From Minisyncoccota bacterium (GTDB lineage: Bacteria; Patescibacteriota; Minisyncoccia; UBA6257; 2-01-FULL-56-20), in assembly GCA_035509435.1 (NCBI GenBank), contig DATJLR010000007.1:1555-65554 (forward strand): DNA of 64,000 bases, in the 5' to 3' direction. Below are positions 9,945 to 52,814 of the stretch, piece after piece. Each line of letters starts with the position of its first letter. Positions within the stretch are counted from its first letter, which is position 1. Position numbers and translations under genes: made by a program. The notes under the pieces were generated by a model. That model worked only from the letters and a program-made list of their open reading frames with translations. It made no database searches and had not been told where the DNA came from.

Positions 9945-11732
9945 ATGGCAACCGAACACTCGCCGGAGAAGATCGACCATATCCGCCACTCGCTCGCGCA
10001 CCTGCTCGCGGCAGCGGTGCTCAAAGAATTCCCTGACGCCAAGCTCGGCGTGGGGCCCGCCGTGGAGAACGGCTTCTATTATGACTTTCTGCTCCCCCGC
10101 CCCGTCACGCCGGACGACCTGAAGGTGCTCGAGAAGACGATGCGCTCGTTCGTCAATAAAAAGCTGGCATTCACCGGCCGCGAGGTCACGCCCGCGGAGG
10201 CAAAAAAGCTTTTTGCGCATCAGCCATTTAAGCTGGATCTAATAAACGACTTTGCGGCCGACGGAAAGACGCTGACCGTGTATGAAACGGGTGCGCCAGA
10301 AACCAGTTCCCAGAAACCAGTTACTGTTTTTATGGATCTCTGCCGCGGCGGCCACGTGGAGAACACATCGGAAATTCCCGCGGACGCTTTTACGCTCGAT
10401 AAGATCGCGGGCGCGTACTGGAAGGGCGACGAAAAGAACCAGCAGCTCCAGCGCATCTACGGCCTCGCGTTCGGGAGCAAGGCCGCGTTAAAAGAATATG
10501 AAAAAATGATGGAAGAAGCCAAGAAGCGCGACCATCGCAAGCTTGGCAAGGAACTTCAGCTCTTCGCGATCATCGATGAGATCGGACCGGGCCTTCCGCT
10601 CTTTTATCCGAAAGGAACCATCCTGCGCCGCACGCTGGAAAATTACATTACCGAGCTGCAGGAACGCCGCGGCTACGTGCCGATCTGGATCCCCCACATC
10701 ACGAAGGGCGAGCTGTATAAGATCTCCGGACACCTCGACAAATATGACGCGATGTATCCGCCGATGGAGCTCAAGGACGAGGCGAACTATTACCTCAAGC
10801 CGATGAACTGCCCGCACTTCATGATGCTCTATAAGACACTGCCGCATTCATACCGGGAGCTGCCGGTGCGCTATGTCTGCACGACCACCAATTACCGCTA
10901 CGAAAAGTCCGGCGAACTTTCCGGTCTTACGCGCGTGCGCGCGCTCACGCAGGATGACTGCCACGTGTTCGCGCGCCCGGACCAGATCAAGCAGGAGATC
11001 AATCTGATGCTCGACATGGTCGCCGAGATATACCGGACGTTCGGCTTTGATGATTTCTGGGTGCGCATCTCGACACACGATCCCGCCAATAAGGAAAAAT
11101 ACATCGGCAACCAGAATGTCTGGGCCGATTCAGAGGCGGCGCTCACCGACCTCATAAAGGACCGCGGATGGAAGTATGATATCGGCGTGGGCGAGGCGGC
11201 ATTCTACGGCCCAAAGCTCGACTTTATATTCAAAGATGTCATCGGCCGTGATTGGCAGCTCTCCACCATACAGCTCGACATGAACCTCCCCCAACGGTTC
11301 GAGCTTGAATATATAGATGAAAGTTCTTCAAAGCAGCGCCCGGTGGTGATCCATCGCGCGATCCTCGGATCGACCGAGCGGTTCCTCGGCATCCTCATCG
11401 AGCACTTCGCCGGCAAATTCCCCGTCTGGCTCTCCCCCGTGCAAGTAGCGGTCCTTCCTGTCAGCGAAAAATTCTCCGATTATGGGAAAAAGGTTTTTGA
11501 TGAGCTTGCCGCCGCCGGCATACGCGCCGAGCTCGCGGCCGCGAACGAGTCGCTCGGCAAACGCATCCGCGAAGCGGAACTGATGAAGGTCCCCTACGTG
11601 CTCGTCGTCGGGGAGAAAGAAGAGGGCGGCGGCTCCGTGAACGTCCGCGACCGCAAGGGCGAGGAGCGCGAAATGCCGCTCAAAGAGTTCCTGAAGCATA
11701 TCAGCGCGGAGATAAAAGAAAAAGCGCTGTAA
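9945..11732 (+). CDS. thrS: Threonyl-tRNA synthetase (short form lacking N-terminal TGS domains)
   Basis: Likely true start MATEHSPEKIDHIRHSLAHLLAAAVL at 9945, in frame within the 9525 track ORF. Motifs DLCRGGHV, HRAILGS, C-terminal anticodon-binding domain. Confidence 0.9.
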   Translation: MATEHSPEKIDHIRHSLAHLLAAAVLKEFPDAKLGVGPAVENGFYYDFLLPRPVTPDDLKVLEKTMRSFVNKKLAFTGREVTPAEAKKLFAHQPFKLDLINDFAADGKTLTVYETGAPETSSQKPVTVFMDLCRGGHVENTSEIPADAFTLDKIAGAYWKGDEKNQQLQRIYGLAFGSKAALKEYEKMMEEAKKRDHRKLGKELQLFAIIDEIGPGLPLFYPKGTILRRTLENYITELQERRGYVPIWIPHITKGELYKISGHLDKYDAMYPPMELKDEANYYLKPMNCPHFMMLYKTLPHSYRELPVRYVCTTTNYRYEKSGELSGLTRVRALTQDDCHVFARPDQIKQEINLMLDMVAEIYRTFGFDDFWVRISTHDPANKEKYIGNQNVWADSEAALTDLIKDRGWKYDIGVGEAAFYGPKLDFIFKDVIGRDWQLSTIQLDMNLPQRFELEYIDESSSKQRPVVIHRAILGSTERFLGILIEHFAGKFPVWLSPVQVAVLPVSEKFSDYGKKVFDELAAAGIRAELAAANESLGKRIREAELMKVPYVLVVGEKEEGGGSVNVRDRKGEEREMPLKEFLKHISAEIKEKAL

Positions 11733-20971: not shown

Positions 20972-21036
20972 AGTTCCAGATTGTAGCCGAACCGGCTCTA
21001 AAAGTCCAGCCGGTCCCGGCTACCAGTTTCTCGTTA

Positions 21037-27774
<6,738 letters not shown>

Positions 27775-31942: not shown

Positions 31943-32066
31943 CTTTGATGTCGGCACATCCTACTTTCCCCGCCCGAAGGCAAGTATCATGGGATTGGGA
32001 CGCTTTCACTTCTCTGTTCGGAATGGGAAGAGGTGGGACACGCCCGAATGAAGCACCGACATCAAA
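31943..32066 (-). rRNA. rrf: 5S rRNA
   Basis: Reverse complement contains CCCATTCCGAACAGAGAAGTGAAAG and paired ends tttgatgtcggtgc / gcaccgacatcaaa. Ends +/-5 nt. Confidence 0.85.
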
Positions 32067-32153: not shown

Positions 32154-32324
32154 TCACTACTTTGTTGATCTCTGGTTGTAGATCAGAAATGATAATGCAA
32201 GTCAGCATTGGGATGGTTGGCGGGATCATTAGTACGTCTTGGCTAAAGCCGTTGCCAGCCTTACACCGAACGCCTATCAACGTCATAGTCTATGACGAGA
32301 TCACGCATACCTAATCTTGGGGTG

Positions 32325-32357
<33 letters not shown>

Positions 32358-32499
32358 CTTCCATACATAGCTACCCGGCAGTTCACCTGGTGGCAAAGCC
32401 GGTAGACCAGAGGTATGTTCAGCCCAGTCCTCTCGTACTAAGGCCAACTCCCCTCAAGTATTTCACGCCTGCAGCAGATAGAGACCGACCTGTCTCACG

Positions 32500-33268
32500 C
32501 AATTTCTTCTTCTATCGCCATTACTGGCGGGTTGGACTATACCACCATCTCCACTGAGATGATCGACGTGTTAGTCCGGCATGATTGCCGGACTCCAGCT
32601 CGTAATGAGCTAAGTCTCTAAGGGGTCAATGCATGATATTTCCGCTTTTTTGAATAATTCAGAAAGCGAAAACGTTCTACTAATTCTGCCAACGCTCGAA
32701 AATCATCTTTACTTTGAATTTTCGATTTAGCATCGAGGATTTGGACCATCAGATCGGCTTGCTCACCTTTCAGTATCAGGAACCCACGAACTTCGCCGAG
32801 AAACGATCTGATCGCCTCTTCGCGCGCGATGGTATATTCGATCATGCCATCATTGCGTTCGCGGATATATCCCAAGTTAATAAGCGAACAAATTTCTTCA
32901 AATTTGCGCTGATCTTTTTTGGATTGGAAAAGCACGATGCAAGGAGCTATTTGAAATCCATATCGATAAGTCGAGTTAGATTTCATCCTTACATAGATAC
33001 TCCCATCTCCATCCAGAAATCCTGCTATGTATGCTTTTTGCGTTGACGAAAGACTTTTCATACACGACTTCCCTCGGTATTATCCTACGATCTCACGTCT
33101 CATCAAACTAGTTTTTAATCTATTTTTAATAAGCGTTACGATACATCCCAGGTCAGGATGTTAGGACTTCACCGATATGAGTCGATTTTGCTATCTCGAT
33201 CGCTCGAGAAAGCCGCCGTTTTTGTTTTAACAGTTTTTGATGTACCTTCGATCGGGTTATCTTCGTTG
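32500..33268 (-). mobile_element. Group I intron at 23S position equivalent to E. coli U2593 (I-CreI site)
   Basis: 5' exon ends ...GGGTTCAGACCGT and 3' exon resumes CGTGAGACAGGTCGG. The intron begins CAACGAAG and ends ...AATTG (omega-G). It is ~770 nt and includes a LAGLIDADG ORF. Confidence 0.75.
32618..33061 (-). CDS. LAGLIDADG homing endonuclease (single-motif, I-CreI-like)
   Basis: 147 aa; IAGFLDGDGSIYV motif; encoded inside the 2593 intron. Confidence 0.85.
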   Translation of the reverse strand: MKSLSSTQKAYIAGFLDGDGSIYVRMKSNSTYRYGFQIAPCIVLFQSKKDQRKFEEICSLINLGYIRERNDGMIEYTIAREEAIRSFLGEVRGFLILKGEQADLMVQILDAKSKIQSKDDFRALAELVERFRFLNYSKKRKYHALTP

Positions 33269-34269
33269 ACGGTCTGAACCCAGCTCACGTGCCACTTTAA
33301 TTGGCGAACAGCCAAACGCTTGGGAGCTTCTACACCCCCGCGCTGTGGCGAGCCGACATCGAGGTGCCGAGCATTGTCGTCGCTAGGGACGCTCGGACAA
33401 TACTAGCCTGTTATCCCCGGAGTAGCTTTTATCCGGTGTCTCCGGCCTTTCTATTAAGAAGCCGTCGGGTCACTAACTTCTGCTTTCGCACCTGCTCGTC
33501 TTGTATGACTCGCAGTCAAGCCAGCTTTTGCGTTTGCACGTCCTGCCCGATTTCCATCCGGGCTAAGCTAACCTTAATAAACTCCTCCGTTACTCTTTTG
33601 GAGGAAAACGCCCCATTTAAACTGCCTACCAAGCACTGTCTTAGCGGAGTTTCCCCGAAGGGTTCTCCGCCAGTTAGACGTCAAAATTCTGAAAATGGCT
33701 GTTTCATTGTCGGATCCACGTCACCCGAAAGCGACGCTTCAAATCCTCGCCACTACACTACGTAACAGAACTCTGAAATCAATACCAAGCTGCAGTAAAG
33801 CTTCCGGGGTCTTTTCGTCCCGCTGCAGGTATCCCGCGTCTTCACGGGAATCGCATTTTCACCGAGCTCATCGTTGAGACAGTTCTCCGGTCGTTACACC
33901 TTTCGTGCGCTTCGGAACTTACCCGAAAAGGAATTGCGCTCAAACATGTTACAACACTTTTTGTTGGCCAAAACATTTCTGCTTGGCTCTCTGTGTCGCC
34001 ACAGAGTTCGGACTATATCTTATCGCCTTGCGGCGATCCTAACGTGTAGTCTCTGAGGATCCTTCAAAAGAAGTTTCCTGCTGATTTTCCGCATCGATCA
34101 AAGATTGTTACCTTGCGGTACTTTGATATGCGCGGGTGTTCCAGCATATAGTTAGGTTTTACTAAGGCAATGCAATCACCTTAGAACGATTCTTTTACGT
34201 TATCACCCGCTCGTTTTTTAATTTAAGCGGGATCCTCATGGTCGCCCATGAGATCGGACTATATCATCT

Positions 34270-34827
34270 CTAAAAACTTTTAGAGTCTGGCGTATAGTCT
34301 CTGAGGATTCCTTGATAGTCTATTTCTACGTCTATTACGTTGTATTTACGCCTTCTTCCTCTTCCCTCATTTAAATTTTCCCTGATAGCGATAATTTCTT
34401 GCAGTCCTTTTGGATCAAGGTGTTTGCCTTGCTCCATAAGAAATGCAATTTGTTTGAACAGGAGAAAATTTTTCTTTTTTGATGAAGAAAAGAAAGGAAA
34501 CTTTTCGAAAAACGGTATGACGCGATCAATGATCGAACGATAATCGCCGACGACGAAGTAATGCACTCCGTCTTCACGATTTTGCAATCGTCCGCAACCT
34601 AAATGACTTTTTAATAATTCCAAATTGGCGATATCGCGCTGGGCCACGTTAAAGGTCATTTGCACCTGCCATCCAAGGCGATGCCCATTCCCTTTTCGAA
34701 GAGAGACATTAAAACTTCCCTCTCCATCCGTAAAACCAGAAAGATACCAGCCAATGTTGTCTGGAATTTTCTCAAGCCATTCACGGTTATACCAAGGCCT
34801 TTCCTGCTGATTGTCTGCACCGATCAT
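34270..34827 (-). CDS. LAGLIDADG homing endonuclease (single-motif)
   Basis: 185 aa; LSGFTDGEGSFNVS motif. Confidence 0.85.
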   Translation of the reverse strand: MIGADNQQERPWYNREWLEKIPDNIGWYLSGFTDGEGSFNVSLRKGNGHRLGWQVQMTFNVAQRDIANLELLKSHLGCGRLQNREDGVHYFVVGDYRSIIDRVIPFFEKFPFFSSSKKKNFLLFKQIAFLMEQGKHLDPKGLQEIIAIRENLNEGRGRRRKYNVIDVEIDYQGILRDYTPDSKSF

Positions 34828-34991
34828 ATTGTCACGCTAGCACATCAACATTAAATCTTTATTAAAAAGATTTCATGATGAGCAACGTAATGTCGGATTC
34901 TCAGAGTTTCCAGCATTTGGCCAGATTTTATAACTACAATCGTTATGTCTATAGTTATCGCTGACATTGACGAGGGCTTGAATCAGTGAGC

Positions 34992-35080
34992 CTCCTGGTA
35001 ACTAATTGCTAGTAACTCGGTAACCTAGCAAGAAAAATCTTGCTAGTTACCAAGGTTTACTAGTAACCAGTGACCAGGAG
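34992..35080. repeat. Imperfect ~40-bp-stem hairpin built from GTTAC(C/T)AG / CTAGTAAC words at the 5' edge of the domain-IV insertion (replaces the helix-68-like hairpin)
   Basis: ctcctggtaactaattgctagtaactcggtaacctagcaag-aaaaatc-ttgctagttaccaaggtttactagtaaccagtgaccaggag. Confidence 0.7.
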
Positions 35081-35723
35081 ACCCCCAATCTTGACCTTCT
35101 CGCATCGGTCAGGTGTCACCCCCTATACATCCTGTTGCCAGTTAGCAGGGAGCTGTGTTTTTGGTAAACAGTCGCCAGAGATTCTTTAGCTGCGGCCCCG
35201 CCCGCATTGCTGCGGAAAGGGCAGGCCTTATTGCTAACTTACGGCCGCTATTTTGCCTAGTTCCTTAACGATGAATCACTCGTTCCCCTTGGGCTACTCG
35301 CCCTATACACCAGTGTCGGTTTCCGGTACGGAGACCACACGCTCGATTTGGCCAAATTTTTCTCGAACGGCTCTTCACAAACGTCGGCCAGGTAAATTCC
35401 TGACCTTCTCTCGGCGCGCGCTTGAACTCCGCGCAAAGAATGCCAAACCGATAAGGCACGCCTGCTTATATCCGTTGTCCTTTGGTTATGATCGTGCGGC
35501 CGGGCTGGAATATTAACCAGCTTCCCATCGACTGCCCCTTTCGGGATCGCCTTAGGACCGCCTAACCCGTGGTTGATTGCCAGTGCCACGGAAACCTTGT
35601 ATTTTCGGGGTTCCAATTTCTCATTGGGATTGTGGTTACTCATTCCAACATTTTCTCTTCCGGCCGCTCCAAACGCCCTCGCGGGTCGATCTTCACTGCA
35701 GGCCGAAATGCTCTCCTACCACT

Positions 35724-35762
35724 ACTGGTAACTGATTACTAGTTGCTAGTAAACCTAGTAGA
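35724..35762. repeat. IVS 3'-flank motif block, complementary to 36163..36204 (RNase III-type stem of the 23S IVS)
   Basis: ctggtaactgattactagttgctagtaaacctagtag; reverse complement of the 5'-flank block is ctggtaactgattactggtaactaggaactagtaacaag. Confidence 0.7.
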
Positions 35763-36113
35763 TTTTTCAATGCTTTTTGTAAGATTGGTCAATTCTTTGC
35801 CGACGATCGCGTATTGCTCGGAAAGGAATTTGTATTGTTCATCGGAAAGTAACTCCACTTTCCGCATGAATTCAAGATTGAACGCTATTTCATCCGCTGA
35901 TCCCAAGGAATCTTTCAGATGATTGATCGTGTCCTTCTTTGATTTCTTCCGTGCGAACCCTTCCGCGATGTTTGAGGGAATTGAACGTGAGGCCCGCCGT
36001 ATTTGATCGGCAAGCTCCAGTTTATATTCCTTCGGCAATGAAAGAGATATTTTATGAACCTTTATTGCAAGTTCGAACGATCTTTTGAACACATCAAGAT
36101 CTTTGTATATCAT
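35739..36113 (-). CDS. 23S rRNA intervening-sequence protein (four-helix-bundle, TIGR02436-like)
   Basis: 124 aa; FELAIKVHKISLSLPKEYKLELADQIRRASRSIPSNIAEGFARK. Sits at a helix-45-like position (~E. coli 1170-1200) flanked by complementary motif blocks. Confidence 0.8.
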   Translation of the reverse strand: MIYKDLDVFKRSFELAIKVHKISLSLPKEYKLELADQIRRASRSIPSNIAEGFARKKSKKDTINHLKDSLGSADEIAFNLEFMRKVELLSDEQYKFLSEQYAIVGKELTNLTKSIEKSTRFTSN

Positions 36114-36162
36114 CCTTCCATTGAACCATTTCTCGCATTAACTCTTTCTTAAATCTTTTCCT

Positions 36163-36204
36163 TGTTACTAGTTCCTAGTTACCAGTAATCAGTTACCAGT
36201 AATC
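36163..36204. repeat. IVS 5'-flank motif block (partner of 35724..35762)
   Basis: cttgttactagttcctagttaccagtaatcagttaccagtaatccg. Confidence 0.7.
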
Positions 36205-37050
36205 CGTATCTTCGGTACCATGCTTAGCCCCGGTACATTTTCGGCGCCACGACCCGTCGAATAGTGAGTTGTTACACACTCTTTAAAGGATGGCTACCTC
36301 TAAGCCAACCTCCTATCTGTCTATGGGTCATGACTACCTTTTACACTTAGCATGGATTTAGGGACCTTAGATGACGATCTGGGCTCTTCCCCTCGCGACC
36401 ACGGAGCTTAGCCCCCGCAGTCTAACTAGCAAGATCTTGACTCTCGGTATTCGGAGTTTGATTGATCGTTCGGTCTTTCGACCTGTAACGATCATCCAGT
36501 GCTCTACCCCCAAGAGGAACTCTTGCCGCCAGTCCTAAAACTGTTTCGGAGAGAACCAGCTATTACGTTATTCGATTAGCTTTTCACTCCTTACCTCAGC
36601 TCATCCGAAGATTTTGAACAATCAACCGGTTCGGGCCTCCCTCCCGATTTCTCGGGAGTTCACCCTGGCCAAGGCAAGCTCATAACGCTTCGGGTCTATC
36701 TTGTGCTGCGATCCCACTCAAATTTTTGGAGCCGTGACAAATCCACGGCGATGCGGTATTTTTATGATTAGCTTCTCCTCCACGGGAGGCCGTATGTTCT
36801 CAGGACACAGCCCCGATCCCATGCTTCAGGGCCTCACTTCCTTTCTCATGGAAGCAAACCCGATTGCCTGGGGAGTGCTTGCCGTCGGTGTCGCATTGCT
36901 TATCGTGGCCATTTGGAGCATGCACCACGAAAACAAAACCCCGACCTGCAAGTGACCAATCTGCCAAAACACCTGCCCGCTCACGCGCGCGGGTGTTTTC
37001 TTTTGGCGCTCACGCGCCGCTTATTTCTCCAAAAATTTGAGTGGGATGTG

Positions 37051-37081
<31 letters not shown>

Positions 37082-37244
37082 TCACGCTATGCGCGCTTAG
37101 ACAAGCAACACAAAATAAGTCGTTGGATCATTCTTCAATAGGCACATTGTTCCACTCGTCCGCGGATTGCTCCGCAGCCGTTCGTGGTTCAATTCCTTGT
37201 AGACAAACGGTTTCAGGTTCTATTTCAACGGCCTCACCGGCCTG

Positions 37245-37281
<37 letters not shown>

Positions 37282-38230
37282 ATCTAGAAAAGTATTTAGC
37301 CTTACCTGATAGTACAGGTGTATTCCTCCGGAACTGTTTTACTCCGAAGTACTCAAGTTAAAAAACTAAGGAGACCAAAAGTTTTCGTCTACGGGGCTAT
37401 CACCCGCTCTGGCGCCGCTTTCCAGACGGCTTCGACTAACCAATGATTTTTTTACTCCTCCACCTCCCAGCGAGTAACGCAACGTACACTTGCGTGCGCG
37501 CTACGTTACTTGCTAAAAGAGCGTTTTTTACTGAACCCCAAGATCGTGATAAATCACAACCTTAGTTTGGGCTCCTCCCCGTTCTCTCGCCGATACTTAG
37601 GGAATAACTGATTTGTTCTATTTTCCTCCGCTTACTGGAATGTTTTACTTCAGCGGGTACGCGATCCGCTTGCGCGGAACAATTGAGGGTTACTCAACTA
37701 GGTTTCCCCATTCGGAAATTCCCGGATCACAGGTTGCTACGCACCTCCCCGAGACATATCGTTGCTACGCCACGTCCTTCATCGCCTTTTCTAGTCTAGG
37801 CATCCACCGTTCGCCCTTATTTGCCAACCATCCCAATGCTGACTTGCTCGTGGATCACAGCGAAACGCCGCAATCCACTTGCCATCAGTAAGAAAAATTC
37901 TTACCGATGCTTTGACCCTGTCCGTCACGAGAAATTGACTACATATGCGTATGCAGCGATCCGGCCCACCCGCAATGCGGATGTTAGCGACCGGACCTAA
38001 TAGTGACACAGGGTCTCCATATTATGTCCTCCGACTCTACAATTCGGAGTTCCGCCAAATCGGCGAATGATTTGAAATAGCATTTGCTCAGCATCGCGAG
38101 ACGCTGCAAGACACGGACCGCCAAGAAAAAAATCAGCCGCACACAGCGGCCGCTGACTGCTTCAAAGAAGCGGCTTCAGCCGGAGTGTTGTGAGAGATTT
38201 AAAGTCTTGACCATTCGTATCTTGAGGATA

Positions 38231-38356: not shown

Positions 38357-38427
38357 TCGGGCCGCCGGGAATCGAACCCGGTCTTTACGCACCCGAAGCG
38401 CACGTACTACCGGTATACTACGGCCCG
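38357..38427 (-). tRNA. tRNA-Pro (anticodon CGG)
   Basis: Minus-strand cloverleaf: acceptor CGGGCCG/CGGCCCG, anticodon arm TGCGC-TTCGGGT-GCGTA, T arm CCGGG-TTCGATT-CCCGG. No encoded CCA. Confidence 0.85.
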
Positions 38428-38584: not shown

Positions 38585-38899
38585 ATGAGAATCACGCACA
38601 TCATGACCGTATCCCTTCCCCCGGCGCTCGTTCGCCAGTTCGAGGAAGTGCGAAAGAAAGAATCACGCACCCGCTCCGAGCTTGTCCGTGAGGCTTTGCG
38701 ATCGTATTTCGAAAGCCGCTACCCCATGGTGATGCCTACCAAAGCGGAACGCGCCGCCATGCGGCGCGGGCGGGCGGCCCTCCAGCGCGGCGATGCCATG
38801 CCATTAAAGAAATTCCTCCATGAAATGGAATCTGCTGATCGCCGGTCCGGCGCAAAAAGAATTTCAAACGCTTCCAGAAAAAGATCGGGAGCGCATTAA
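38585..38899 (+). CDS. Ribbon-helix-helix (CopG/RHH) antitoxin
   Basis: MRITHIMTVSLPPALVRQFEEVRKKESRTRSELVREALRSYFE. The 3' end overlaps the toxin ORF; the functional stop may effectively be earlier. Confidence 0.6.
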   Translation: MRITHIMTVSLPPALVRQFEEVRKKESRTRSELVREALRSYFESRYPMVMPTKAERAAMRRGRAALQRGDAMPLKKFLHEMESADRRSGAKRISNASRKRSGAH

Positions 38900-39080
38900 G
38901 GCGGCGCTCTTTGAGATGCAAACAAATCCCCTTCGGGGAGATTTAAAGCGTTTACAGGGACATCCAGCCGCATGGCGGCGGCGAATAGGCAGCTACCGGA
39001 TTATTTACGATCTTTATTTTAAGAAACACACGATTGTCGTCGTGGCTATCATTCGGCGAACCTCATCAACATACGAATAG
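38820..39080 (+). CDS. RelE/ParE family toxin
   Basis: 86 aa; ...RIGSYRIIYDLYFKKHTIVVVAIIRR, the typical RelE/ParE C-terminal pattern. Confidence 0.7.
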   Translation: MKWNLLIAGPAQKEFQTLPEKDRERIKAALFEMQTNPLRGDLKRLQGHPAAWRRRIGSYRIIYDLYFKKHTIVVVAIIRRTSSTYE

Positions 39081-48080: not shown

Positions 48081-49067
48081 ATGGCAGGGATGAAGTCGCC
48101 AAATTCACCCTTGATGTATGCACGACGACGACGCGCGAACAAAAAATGGCTGTGGGTGGCAGTTGCAGCCATCACTTGCCTGATTGTGCTATGCGGCTGG
48201 TGGGCTTTCGCCCGATCGCCAGCGTCCCCGTCTGCGAATACGCCGCCCGGCACGCTCGCGTGGCCGTCGTTCGGACAGGCCGCCGTCGGCATCGTTGGCA
48301 CGAGCACGATCCAAACATACGGCGATCAAACGCCAGTGCCGACGGCGAGTACCGCAAAAATGATCACCGCTCTCGTGGTGCTCCAAGCCAAACCGCTCTC
48401 GCCCGGCCAAACCGGTCCGATGCTTACCATGTCGCGCGATGACCTTGTCTTATTGAAAACCTACGCCGCCCTTGATGGCTCGAGAATCACCAAAATGGGG
48501 GTCGGCGAACAGCTGAGCGAGTATCAGATGCTGGAAGCCATGATGCTACCCTCCGCCGACAATGCAGCCGACAGCCTGGCCATCTGGGCGTATGGCTCGC
48601 TGCCCGCATACAGCGCAGCTGCCAACAGTTATCTGGCCGGTTTGGGCTTAAGCGGCACGCATGTGGGAACCGACGCGAGCGGCCTTGACCCGAGCACGGT
48701 AAGCACCGCGCACGACATGGTGCTCATCGGCGAACTTGTTATGCAGAATCCTGTGCTTGCGGAAATTGTTGGGGAGCAAAGTGTCAGCGGGTTTCCCTTG
48801 GTAGGCACCATTACCAACACGAACAGCTTGCTTGGCCAGGACGGGATCGTCGGCGTGAAGACCGGCAATAGCGACGAGCAGAGCGGCGCTTATGTGGCGG
48901 CCGCGGATGCCACTGTGAACGGAAAAACTGAAACCATCGTAACGGCAGTACTTGATGCGCCGAGCCTCGACGACGCCATGGATGCCAGCGTGCCGTTGAT
49001 AAAGAGCACCAGGTTTGGCTCTTTATCAAAATCCCGACCTAAAGCCACTCAGGATGTTTCTCTTTAA
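48081..49067 (+). CDS. D-alanyl-D-alanine carboxypeptidase (S11, PBP5-like)
   Basis: TM/signal; STAKMIT (SxxK), SADN (SxN), KTG-like region. Confidence 0.75.
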   Translation: MAGMKSPNSPLMYARRRRANKKWLWVAVAAITCLIVLCGWWAFARSPASPSANTPPGTLAWPSFGQAAVGIVGTSTIQTYGDQTPVPTASTAKMITALVVLQAKPLSPGQTGPMLTMSRDDLVLLKTYAALDGSRITKMGVGEQLSEYQMLEAMMLPSADNAADSLAIWAYGSLPAYSAAANSYLAGLGLSGTHVGTDASGLDPSTVSTAHDMVLIGELVMQNPVLAEIVGEQSVSGFPLVGTITNTNSLLGQDGIVGVKTGNSDEQSGAYVAAADATVNGKTETIVTAVLDAPSLDDAMDASVPLIKSTRFGSLSKSRPKATQDVSL

Positions 49068-49395
49068 TCGAATTAAACCATTCAGCACCAATGATATCTT
49101 CAAGGCTATAATCTTTAAACTCTTTTGATTGAGAGAGGTCGATGACATCTTTTTCGTCTACATAGACCTTGCATTCCCCGCTTGATTCCACGTCACGAAT
49201 TTCTCCTGGGAAAATTTGCAGGTTGATCTTGTTATTCTTGTGTCTCATATAAAAGAGCCAAATTTTTTGGCCGTTATGTAATGGCCCATATTTATCAACT
49301 AGCTTCTTAATCCAAATTTGATTACGTAATGAGAAATGTCCATCAGCATAGTCGTTCCAATCCCCATTGATAAATACTTGTTTCCCTGATTTCAT
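49039..49395 (-). CDS. Hypothetical protein in AT-rich island (candidate immunity/accessory)
   Basis: 118 aa; local GC roughly 38% versus ~60% for the flanks. Confidence 0.4.
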   Translation of the reverse strand: MKSGKQVFINGDWNDYADGHFSLRNQIWIKKLVDKYGPLHNGQKIWLFYMRHKNNKINLQIFPGEIRDVESSGECKVYVDEKDVIDLSQSKEFKDYSLEDIIGAEWFNSIKEKHPEWL

Positions 49396-49401
49396 GTTTT
49401 T

Positions 49402-49773
49402 TTAGCACTTAGAAAGCTCGAATTTCCCTACGTTCTCTTTAAAAGAATTGCCGTAAGCATATAGTTCGATTTGGGTAATACGGCCGTCCTTTCCCCATAA
49501 TACCGATCCGCCTCCATCATCGATATCCTGAGATTTTATTTCTGGTCCATCAAGCGGCCATCCTTTTTTTCTTAATTTATTTATATCAACAAGGTTCGCG
49601 TCCGAAGAAACGTCGAGCTTTATATAAAATCCCGTTTTAGTCCATTTTCGCTCTTTCAATTTAGCAGTATTTATTTGCACGGAAAGATTCTCGTCTTTAT
49701 AGCGTTGGGCGAACCATTGCAAAATAGCCTTTTCTAAACTATTCAACTGAACTTTGCTTGAAGATGATTCCAT
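49402..49773 (-). CDS. Hypothetical protein in AT-rich island (candidate immunity protein)
   Basis: 123-aa ORF in the same low-GC block, tightly spaced. Confidence 0.4.
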   Translation of the reverse strand: MESSSSKVQLNSLEKAILQWFAQRYKDENLSVQINTAKLKERKWTKTGFYIKLDVSSDANLVDINKLRKKGWPLDGPEIKSQDIDDGGGSVLWGKDGRITQIELYAYGNSFKENVGKFELSKC

Positions 49774-49787
49774 TCAAACTGGCGACG

Positions 49788-50108
49788 CTAAACTTGCTTC
49801 TTCTGTTTACTGTCATAAACAAATTCATAAGCGATATCCCCTTCCTTGTGCTGCTCAAAGAAATCCTTTGCTTTTTGGTAAGAAATTTCAAAACTATCAT
49901 CGGAATAGTCAGCAGAGTAATCTTGATCGATTTGGATCGCCCGAGGAGAAACATTTTTAAGTAAATGAAATCCATCGAAACCGAGTAAGCGCAAGTTGTT
50001 TTCTCTCAATAGACCAAGAAACACTACTGCGTCCTTCCTGTTGAGGAGAGTCGCATTATCGTAGGGTTTTAGTCTGTGTTCGGATAGGAATTGTTGTATT
50101 TTGTCCAT
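49788..50108 (-). CDS. Hypothetical protein in AT-rich island (candidate immunity protein)
   Basis: 106 aa; directly downstream of the toxin-like gene. Confidence 0.4.
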   Translation of the reverse strand: MDKIQQFLSEHRLKPYDNATLLNRKDAVVFLGLLRENNLRLLGFDGFHLLKNVSPRAIQIDQDYSADYSDDSFEISYQKAKDFFEQHKEGDIAYEFVYDSKQKKQV

Positions 50109-50120
50109 GGCTTTAATATA

Positions 50121-50729
50121 TCACTCAAATGGAAAGATTTCATCTGGAACTATGATGCCTGGTTCTTCCGGAACGACCTCCGGAATATATGGATCTTGAA
50201 TGGAAGAATCGGGATACCATTCAGGATCATTTTTGTTGGATACTTGAATTACTTGTTTAGTCACATTATCAACGGAAACATAGTTCCCCTGCTCATCATA
50301 ATACGCGGTCGCTGGATTGCCATTTGCCTTATTCGCTGCAGCGCGCGTGGTGAAGGGATTTCCATAAAGCTTGTCTATGTCTTGCTGAGTCCAACCGCGA
50401 CCCTCCATTTGATTGGATATTTTTTCTGGGATTACAGGACCGCTACCCCCTCCACCAGACCCTCCCGAAGTCACCAAACTTCCATACCCACCAATAGATA
50501 TCCACGGCGATCCCGTTCCACCCTGCCCTCCTCCAGCTGGCGTATTAACACCAACATTGTTCAGATTAGAAGGATTGCCTGCTTTGCCAATATTCGTAGA
50601 ACCAACATTATTTCCCTGACCCGGATTACTCATTGACCCTCCTGTTGTAGCGGCTAATTGCCCCAAGCTATTAACTATGGATTGCAAACTATTCACTATT
50701 TGCTGTAGTGAAGCGATAATAGATTTCAA
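50121..50729 (-). CDS. Gly/Asn-rich secreted protein with conserved C-terminal toxin-like domain (polymorphic-toxin-like)
   Basis: 202 aa; N-terminal LQQIVNSLQSIVNSLGQLAATTGG, Gly-rich linker, C-terminal GWTQQDIDKLYGNPFTTRAA...ATAYYDEQGNYVSVDNVTKQVIQVS, followed by three small ORFs. Confidence 0.45.
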   Translation of the reverse strand: MKSIIASLQQIVNSLQSIVNSLGQLAATTGGSMSNPGQGNNVGSTNIGKAGNPSNLNNVGVNTPAGGGQGGTGSPWISIGGYGSLVTSGGSGGGGSGPVIPEKISNQMEGRGWTQQDIDKLYGNPFTTRAAANKANGNPATAYYDEQGNYVSVDNVTKQVIQVSNKNDPEWYPDSSIQDPYIPEVVPEEPGIIVPDEIFPFE

Positions 50730-52778: not shown

Positions 52779-52814
52779 CAAGAAACTATTTACCAGAAAC
52801 TAATTACCAGTACG

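Follow-up and report, generated by a model that had tools for sequence, protein, structure and literature searches.

Introduction

The described systems closest to the locus reported here are the RNase III-excised intervening sequences (IVSs) in the 23S ribosomal RNA (rRNA) genes of Leptospira, Coxiella, Haemophilus sp. FF7 and Brucella. They sit at the tip of helix 45, have complementary termini and carry in their loop a sense open reading frame (ORF) of the PF05635 family; besides helix 45, helices 9 and 25 are known IVS sites. Here we analyse a 64,000-nt stretch of a Minisyncoccota genome (contig DATJLR010000007.1; the window hereafter), whose host belongs to the Paceibacterota of the Candidate Phyla Radiation (CPR). 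Its 23S rRNA gene carries a cassette of this layout at helix 45, for which excision is presumed by analogy, and a hairpin without ORF in helix 68, both built of tandem copies of one 7-nt unit.

In Coxiella, RNase III cleaves the IVS, and 2-3 tandem GACAGAT heptamers, varying in number among strains, precede its ORF; 23S fragmentation by IVS cleavage has been shown for Coxiella, Leptospira and Salmonella (PMC4990558). According to Warrier et al. 2016, the origin and function of the IVS and its protein S23p "remain unclear" (PMC4990558). For the 23S IVS and the S23p or intervening-sequence protein (IVP) alike, this has been an open question since ~1990. CPR rRNA insertion sequences were reportedly described by Brown et al. 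in 2015. A survey of such insertions by Tsurumaki et al. 2024 found IVP ORFs scattered over several rRNA sites; it used a 100-bp threshold and leaves repeats and hairpins unmentioned (PMC11270868).

The window resembles the surveyed CPR genomes in having several 23S insertions, among them LAGLIDADG group I introns at 1917 and 2593, both listed as frequent sites, but the heptamer-array makeup of its short non-intron insertions is absent from that survey's account (PMC11270868). Unlike in known IVSs, the whole stem of the window's IVS is a 7-nt unit array, and the same units also form the ORF-less helix-68 hairpin and insertions in protein genes. We hold it probable, at roughly 65%, that the 23S gene carries two insertions from one lineage-specific CTRGTAA/TTACYAG family, an IVS cassette and a recently gained ORF-less hairpin, and that this family spread selfishly.

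Results

A helix-45 cassette and a helix-68 hairpin share a 7-nt unit

The 23S gene and the two insertions occupy the following window positions.

32230-37830, minus strand: 23S rRNA gene (Rfam LSU_rRNA_bacteria from 37830 to 33157, plus MAFFT alignment with E. coli rrl; 3′ end approximate)
35722-36204, minus strand: helix-45 IVS of ~480 nt, comprising 5′ arm, leader, ORF and 3′ arm (Rfam model position 1218/1219, equivalent to E. coli 1163-1184)
36158-36204, minus strand: IVS 5′ arm (period 7 and 14 by TRF; pairs with 35722-35762)
35739-36113, minus strand: 124-aa ORF for a four-helix-bundle protein (23S rRNA IVS protein, S23p, Avd-like; PF05635, TIGR02436)
35722-35762, minus strand: IVS 3′ arm, of UUACYAG-type units
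34992-35080, minus strand: ORF-less hairpin at the tip of helix 68, domain IV (82-nt insert in the Rfam alignment at model position ~1893; after E. coli 1861)

According to Rfam and the alignment with E. coli, the IVS occupies the helix-45 loop, which is a classic IVS site. The ORF between its arms is in sense orientation to the rRNA and matched PF05635, "23S rRNA-intervening sequence protein", with 100 bits (E = 1e-28; cutoff 33.8) and TIGR02436, "four helix bundle protein", with 98.9 bits (cutoff 24); its structural homologues include PDB entries 2GSC and 2RLD. The TAG stop and the last ~7 codons fall within the 3′ arm. A first-pass annotation of this DNA had taken the blocks at 35724-35762 and 36163-36204 for complementary arms flanking an IVS-protein ORF, and both parts of this claim were confirmed. 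The arms are 87% complementary over 30 nt (35723-35752 with 36172-36201), giving a stem of ~23-30 bp with five to six units per side, and in the predicted fold of a 531-nt stretch they form the closing stem (z = -7.1).

Pairing of the arms was further examined by covariance, as the annotation had proposed. IVSs at helix 45 were compared in four sequences, the window and its relatives L004, L007 and L094, with proteins 75-81% identical. Across the 23-pair stem, 94.4% of cells were paired, against 12-56% when the partners were slid. Every stem position that varied with a standard pair kept had changed on both sides (4/4, none one-sided), so that four compensatory double changes support the stem. 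Arm identity (0.78-1.00) equalled that of codon positions 1+2 of the ORF, while codon position 3 stood at 0.37-0.62. The ORF itself is under strong purifying selection, with dN/dS of 0.07-0.11 against relatives at saturated synonymous sites; in contrast, the Coxiella ORF is reported to be decaying.

The third block, which the annotation had read as an imperfect hairpin of the same words replacing a short native domain-IV helix, folds into a near-perfect hairpin continuous with native helix 68 (-64.8 kcal/mol, z = -9.2, equalled by 0/200 shuffles), with 82 nt in place of the 6-nt loop of the Rfam model. Its location in domain IV was correct, but the replacement is confined to ~17 nt at the apex of helix 68 and does not extend to a whole helix. 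Positions 34992-35028 share 78% identity with 35722-35758 over 37 nt, and local alignment of the hairpin with either IVS arm scored 33-38, compared with a mean of ~14 and a maximum of 24 for mononucleotide shuffles (z ~9-10).

The words common to the three blocks, on which the annotation had based its case, proved to be tandem 7-nt units, CTRGTAA or its complement TTACYAG. In RNA sense the 5′ arm reads as six units (CUGGUAA, CUGAUUA, CUGGUAA, CUAGGAA, CUAGUAA, CAAGGAA), and both halves of the helix-68 hairpin as well as the IVS 3′ arm consist of the same units or of the complement UUACYAG. Runs of at least three CTRG/CYAG cores with period 7 were observed 4 times against 0.09 expected; the other periods from 4 to 11 gave 0-1.

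The hairpin is a recent gain, because helix 68 is short and free of repeats in two relatives whose IVS proteins are ~80% identical to the window's: in L007 the flanking rRNA is identical (GAUUGGGGGU...GCUCACUGAUUC), and in L093 the flanks are related, not identical. The more distant L005 has an independent, shorter helix-68 extension of the same units. Both the IVS and the hairpin were identical in independent ENA and Logan assemblies (L002, L003).

Other identities were considered for these insertions. A group I intron was rejected for the two blocks, since the only RF00028 match lies at 33989-34187 and none in 34992-36204. PADLOC gave no match for the IVS gene. The ORF was also rejected as the accessory gene Avd of a diversity-generating retroelement: the protein belongs to the same four-helix-bundle fold family (NF033474, E = 4e-6; phrog_3206; PMC10053308), but its 27 bits fall far under the NF033474 equivalog cutoff of 80, and unlike Avd it sits in a cassette without a template repeat/variable repeat pair or reverse transcriptase. 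The latter statement concerns the cassette, the immediate neighbours of the ORF being rRNA sequence; no reverse transcriptase search was made over the remainder of the 64 kb.

The units have spread into protein genes

Copies of the motif were sought over the window with a position weight matrix (PWM) trained on the rRNA blocks, the site threshold being the maximum of 100 shuffles. Three places gave sites above it, namely 1921-1941 within lepA, 21020-21054 at the 3′ end of rpoBC and 52790-52810 ahead of gatA; the motif is therefore not unique to the rRNA locus. With a relaxed period-7 criterion, the window contained 8 arrays, four of them outside the rRNA, whereas shuffled sequences had 0.87 on average and 4 at most. 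The same criterion found 0 arrays in a syntenic 21-kb stretch of the close relative L092. The arrays outside the rRNA are the following.

10293-10325, plus strand: in-frame thrS array, GCG CCAGAAA CCAGTTC CCAGAAA CCAGTTA CT, read as APETSSQKPVT
1885-1965, minus strand: two-armed lepA array in a surface loop, peptide LVTRDLELVTGNARNKLLETSR (GC 0.52 vs 0.66 in a relative)
21020-21057, minus strand: array running over the TAG stop of the fused rpoBC gene and the codons just before it (position matrix and comparison with a relative)
52779-52813, plus strand: single-orientation array TTACCAG AAACTAA TTACCAG in the spacer that immediately precedes gatA (PWM)

In thrS, comparison with syntenic L092 showed a clean insertion of +30 nt made of four units: the window reads YETG-APETSSQKPVT-VFMDLCRG where L092 reads YETG-D-VFMDLCRG, so that a single Asp codon is replaced. 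The lepA loop is 12 nt longer than that of the relative. Among the 120 closest lepA orthologues, 118 have LANRDSTGIGAARAKEL (most) or another sequence at this place, and the unit-built version was found only in the window and P0125. A clean element insertion was accordingly rejected for lepA, which has a rebuilt loop, longer by 12 nt and common to one other lineage. At the 3′ end of rpoBC the C-terminus reads ...AVLETSS*, with the stop codon coming from the array, compared with ...AVVVAE in a 96%-identical relative (P0241). The pre-gatA array scored 22.4 by PWM against a maximum of 21.4 in 100 shuffles, judged on the window sequence alone. These results show that the units have spread into thrS, lepA and the rpoBC 3′ end.

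The C-termini of IVS proteins (STRFTSN*, KPVTSN*) are likewise encoded by repeat, namely by the 3′ arm (window 35739-35762 and homologues). Since they resemble the array peptides of ThrRS (PETSSQKPVT), LepA (LLETSR) and RpoBC (LETSS*), translation of the units yields a Thr/Ser-rich motif that recurs.

The cassette occupies different sites in related bacteria

The ORF with its arms lies at helix 45 in the window, L004, L007 and L094. In related CPR bacteria, a homologous ORF between arms built of these units was found at 23S helix 9/10 in L005 and L010, between 23S and 5S on the opposite strand in L008, and between dnaX and a tRNA in L009 (Pacebacteria). L010 in addition has six copies of an ORF-less element of ~110 nt in one 23S gene. 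Each consists of five units, a conserved module of two mini-hairpins (GCGTCGCUUCGCGACGC and GUCGCGCGAAGCGCGAC) and five inverse units; the six copies have a mean column identity of 76% and a common non-repetitive centre, GCGTCGCTTCGCGACGC...GTCGCGCGAAGCGCGAC. The central module GTCGCGCGAAGCGCGACAACCAG had no match in the window even with 3 mismatches. The annotation had proposed that the insertions point to one invasive element or process, and the lineage-specific arrays outside the rRNA, the varied sites of the ORF with arms and the L010 copies all support this proposal.

L010 (JGI 3300020222, 1093-6525) carries, beside its IVP-encoding IVS at helix 9/10, two LAGLIDADG ORFs. Its tRNA genes at 3105-3178 and 3220-3293 lie within the span of 23S homology, which could reflect a split 23S gene or a misassembly.

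Array, gene and inverse array form the general layout of the PF05635 family

A matrix specific for CTRGTAA gave only 3 matches on 80 diverse PF05635 loci, from which we concluded that the unit sequence is lineage-specific; this prompted a test based on period. It covered 78 loci with PF05635 homologues from diverse GTDB species, 14 inside 23S genes and 64 outside rRNA. Flanks exceeded the 95th percentile of controls in 62% at period 7 and 26% at period 8, with at most 12% at any other period. When the upstream flank was compared with the reverse-complemented downstream flank, an inverted repeat above the control 95th percentile was present in 78% of loci. Arrays stood on both flanks in 11/14 rRNA-borne and 43/64 non-rRNA loci. 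The layout of array, PF05635 gene and inverse array is thus general to the family, inside and outside rRNA.

The arrays are typically 3-5 units long (median ~4), and their strands differ, purines making up 67% of upstream and 35% of downstream arrays. All 19 rRNA-borne ORFs examined were in sense to the rRNA (19/19). On IMG/VR viral contigs (L095-L113), a period-7/8 array lay upstream of the gene in 15/19 loci. The unit changes with lineage; as examples, proteobacterial IVSs have GGACAGA, Bacteroidota AGGCAGT, Anaerolineae CTRGAAG and Saccharibacteria AATTAAG. Extreme flanking arrays reached 12-13 units in L014, and those of L017 and L111 were perfect.

Arrays of CTRGTWW were also seen by themselves. 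They are common in metagenomes of widely differing GC and reach up to 19 copies. Often they adjoin an array whose unit differs slightly, often they lie at the end of a contig, and most are without PF05635 within 250 nt.

According to the legend of Fig. 6B in PMC10910872, "23S rRNA IVP" is among the proteins shown in a figure of association with CRISPR adaptation modules. The repeat arrays flanking IVP genes might contribute to this association in a CRISPR-finding pipeline.

Other insertions in the 23S gene and its surroundings

The 23S gene measures ~5.6 kb, against 2.9 kb in E. coli. By MAFFT, homology to E. coli rrl runs to ~32230, past a 769-nt intron-like insertion at E. coli 2592 (32500-33268) with a 147-aa LAGLIDADG ORF (32618-33061, minus strand); the Rfam match stops at 33157 because this second intron-like insertion interrupts the gene. 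A group I intron of 991 nt with a LAGLIDADG ORF lies at E. coli 1916, and further insertions of ~100 nt, 20 nt and 337 nt were found at E. coli 282-290, 537 and 655, respectively.

The 337-nt insert in domain II (36710-37046, minus strand, after E. coli 655) has a perfect 20-bp closing stem, UCCCACUCAAAUUUUUGGAG / CUCCAAAAAUUUGAGUGGGA, without 7-nt units, and a fold z of -7.3. It matched no Rfam family and contains no convincing ORF; it may be a different kind of IVS. The ~100 extra nt in domain I (37441-37546, minus strand) form a hairpin around AGCAAGUAACGUAGCGCGC...GCGUUACUCGCU, in which GUAAC words are present and clear 7-nt periodicity is absent.

The 5S gene occupies 31949-32060, the 3′ end of 23S (~32230) coming just before it. 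A tRNA (38357-38427) and then a small pair of ribbon-helix-helix (RHH)/RelE-like genes (38585-39080) lie 5′ of 23S. No 16S rRNA gene adjoins the 23S gene or occurs in the 64-kb window, so that the rRNA genes appear unlinked. Genes rpoB and rpoC are fused in one 2245-aa ORF (21037-27774, minus strand) that covers the Pfam domains of both subunits. A low-GC island at 49039-50729 (GC 0.38-0.46 vs ~0.58 for the genome) has four small ORFs on the minus strand, one for a 202-aa Gly-rich protein followed by three for proteins of ~106-123 aa that look like immunity proteins; it may be a toxin/immunity cassette.

Discussion

Already known are IVSs at helix 45 that carry an S23p ORF, insertions in CPR rRNA, scattered IVP ORFs among them, and the GACAGAT repeats of Coxiella. 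In the literature we found no general account of the array, gene and inverse array layout, only these Coxiella repeats, and no account of an ORF-less helix-68 hairpin of IVS units or of such units inserted in frame in thrS and lepA.

Two classes of short dispersed repeats offer a comparison. The Rickettsia palindromic elements (RPEs) reported by Ogata et al. in 2000 are said to be palindromes of unique sequence, 100-150 bp long. They are hairpin-forming short repeats found in frame in essential protein genes and in RNA genes of a reduced genome, and the window's units share these traits; unlike them, the window has tandem 7-mers, and there is no sequence similarity. We know of no gene associated with RPEs. 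The other class comprises the short tandemly repeated repetitive (STRR) heptamers and small dispersed repeats that Vioque (1997), Costa (2002) and Elhai (2008) reportedly described in cyanobacterial RNase P RNA and a tRNA-Leu intron. As with STRR, tandem 7-nt units lengthen helices of a structured RNA, here helices 45 and 68, and are scattered in the genome. Unlike STRR, whose units are said to be CCCCAGT, TTGGTCA and CAACAGT, the unit here is CTRGTAA, in the 23S rRNA of a CPR host. TAACTGA repeats have been described in Beggiatoaceae, Cyanobacteria and Bacteroidetes, in a report that leaves rRNA IVSs and S23p unmentioned (MacGregor 2015; PMC4679880); their occurrence in several phyla by no known mechanism is a further resemblance to the repeats described here. 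The TAACTGA report makes no link to PF05635 genes or to cassettes with inverted arms, and the STRR reports are not known to make one.

Measured against RPEs and miniature inverted-repeat transposable elements (MITEs), the units show copies dispersed beyond chance (8 arrays over the 64-kb window; in the 23S gene of L010, six copies of ~110 nt) and presence/absence polymorphism (helix 68 vs L007 and L093, thrS vs L092, rpoBC vs P0241). A target-site duplication and a transposase were not found: the thrS insertion is without duplication, and the partner protein is a four-helix bundle, no known transposase.

How such a family could spread can be sketched. The arms would pair in the pre-rRNA as double-stranded RNA of at least 21-35 bp, a length that suffices for RNase III. 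We infer excision by this enzyme from the stem length and from the precedent of Coxiella and Leptospira; by analogy, the cut would free the ORF RNA and break 23S at helix 45, with a further break probable at helix 68. The cassette may be a promoter-less selfish unit that rides on host transcripts. Arms made of tandem repeats would keep the stem despite slippage, and ORF-less hairpins and single arms could be derivatives that spread or persist alone, in the manner of MITEs. The strict sense orientation and the strand-asymmetric arms point to a role at the RNA level and to dependence on host transcription. A broader proposal, which we put forward tentatively as a possibility, is that PF05635 genes with inverted 7/8-nt arrays make up a widespread, hitherto unrecognised class of selfish cassettes. 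These would travel on host transcripts, chiefly rRNA, and be excised at the RNA level by way of their repeat-built stem; their pentameric Avd-like protein would recognise the lineage-specific units, and miniature derivatives would arise from them.

Several observations weigh against selfish spread of one family. Among 120 metagenome contigs with at least four perfect CTRGTWW units (L115-L234), a PF05635 gene lay near the array in 3-4, so the arrays are not exclusive to the gene and solo arrays are common; none (0) of their arrays was in rRNA. The thrS junction shows no visible target-site duplication. In lepA, sequence was replaced with a net gain of just +12 nt, not cleanly inserted, and neither of the single-orientation arrays, one in thrS and one ahead of gatA, forms a fold. 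When the units of the IVS arms were permuted, the helix-68 arms aligned no better with the actual order (p = 0.09-0.23). The significance obtained with mononucleotide shuffles thus vanished on permutation of whole units, and the hairpin was rejected as a direct copy of the IVS stem: it need not be one, and shared units alone are claimed.

Much of this would follow if no element moved at all, heptamer microsatellites having expanded by local slippage site by site and selection having kept the harmless hairpins. Slippage could give rise to the solo CTRGTWW arrays and certainly contributes. In favour of this view, the arrays are true tandem repeats, copy number differs among Coxiella strains, 117/120 metagenome contigs with such arrays lack a nearby PF05635 gene and unit order is not significantly common to helix 68 and IVS. 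As the sole process we nevertheless consider it unlikely. The thrS site of the relative (GGC GAC GTC) offers no seed for CCAGAAA/CCAGTTC, lineage-specific units occur at 8 sites in the window against 0 in 21 kb of its syntenic relative, the six L010 copies have a common non-repetitive centre, and the position of the ORF with its arms varies among related genomes. An explanation of another kind, which we find rather doubtful, would see the arrays as recognition sites of a pentameric protein, with about one unit per subunit, and solo arrays as further sites under its control. A pentameric toroid has been reported for the Xanthomonas S23p (cited in PMC4990558), and the PDB entries of homologues contain 5 chains; arrays of typically 3-5 units (median ~4) would suit such a protein, as would their presence beside nearly every family member with lineage-specific units, their strand asymmetry (purines 67% upstream vs 35% downstream) and arms conserved about like codon positions 1+2. 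Pairing constraint by itself, however, slows arm evolution, 3-5 units also fit the general minimum of ~20 bp for an RNase III substrate, and the thrS and lepA arrays are translated, an odd location for regulatory sites.

For the helix-68 hairpin alone, it could be argued that it stays in the mature ribosome as an expansion segment, neither excised nor selfish. It forms a coaxial extension of native helix 68 at the helix tip, and CPR 23S genes hold many short, uncharacterised insertions (PMC11270868). We think this quite improbable: the hairpin is dispensable, being absent in close relatives, one of them with identical flanks, its near-perfect duplex of ~40 bp would be a typical RNase III substrate, and its units correspond to a family by which coding sequence is disrupted as well. 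That the insertions stem from misassembly or a chimeric contig has a negligible probability. Repeats often break metagenome assemblies and many array contigs end at the array, but the independent ENA and Logan assemblies rule out an artefact here, the homologous stems of relatives show compensatory changes, and the ORF is intact and under selection. We retain selfish spread of a lineage-specific family of units as the preferred explanation of the two 23S insertions.

The locus suggests that the defining feature of an IVS is its layout, a 7-nt array, a gene and an inverse array, and not a particular sequence. Loci within rRNA and elsewhere, from different phyla and from viral contigs, share this layout, and ORF-less derivatives exist. 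It provides a testable signature for unexplained rRNA intervening sequences and a concrete source for some of the short unexplained CPR rRNA insertions and for the peptide insertions in ThrRS and LepA. If PF05635 genes and their arrays do form a class of selfish cassettes, the origin of bacterial rRNA intervening sequences would be explained, and their hairpins and solo arrays would seed sites of rRNA expansion or fragmentation and in-frame peptides in essential genes.

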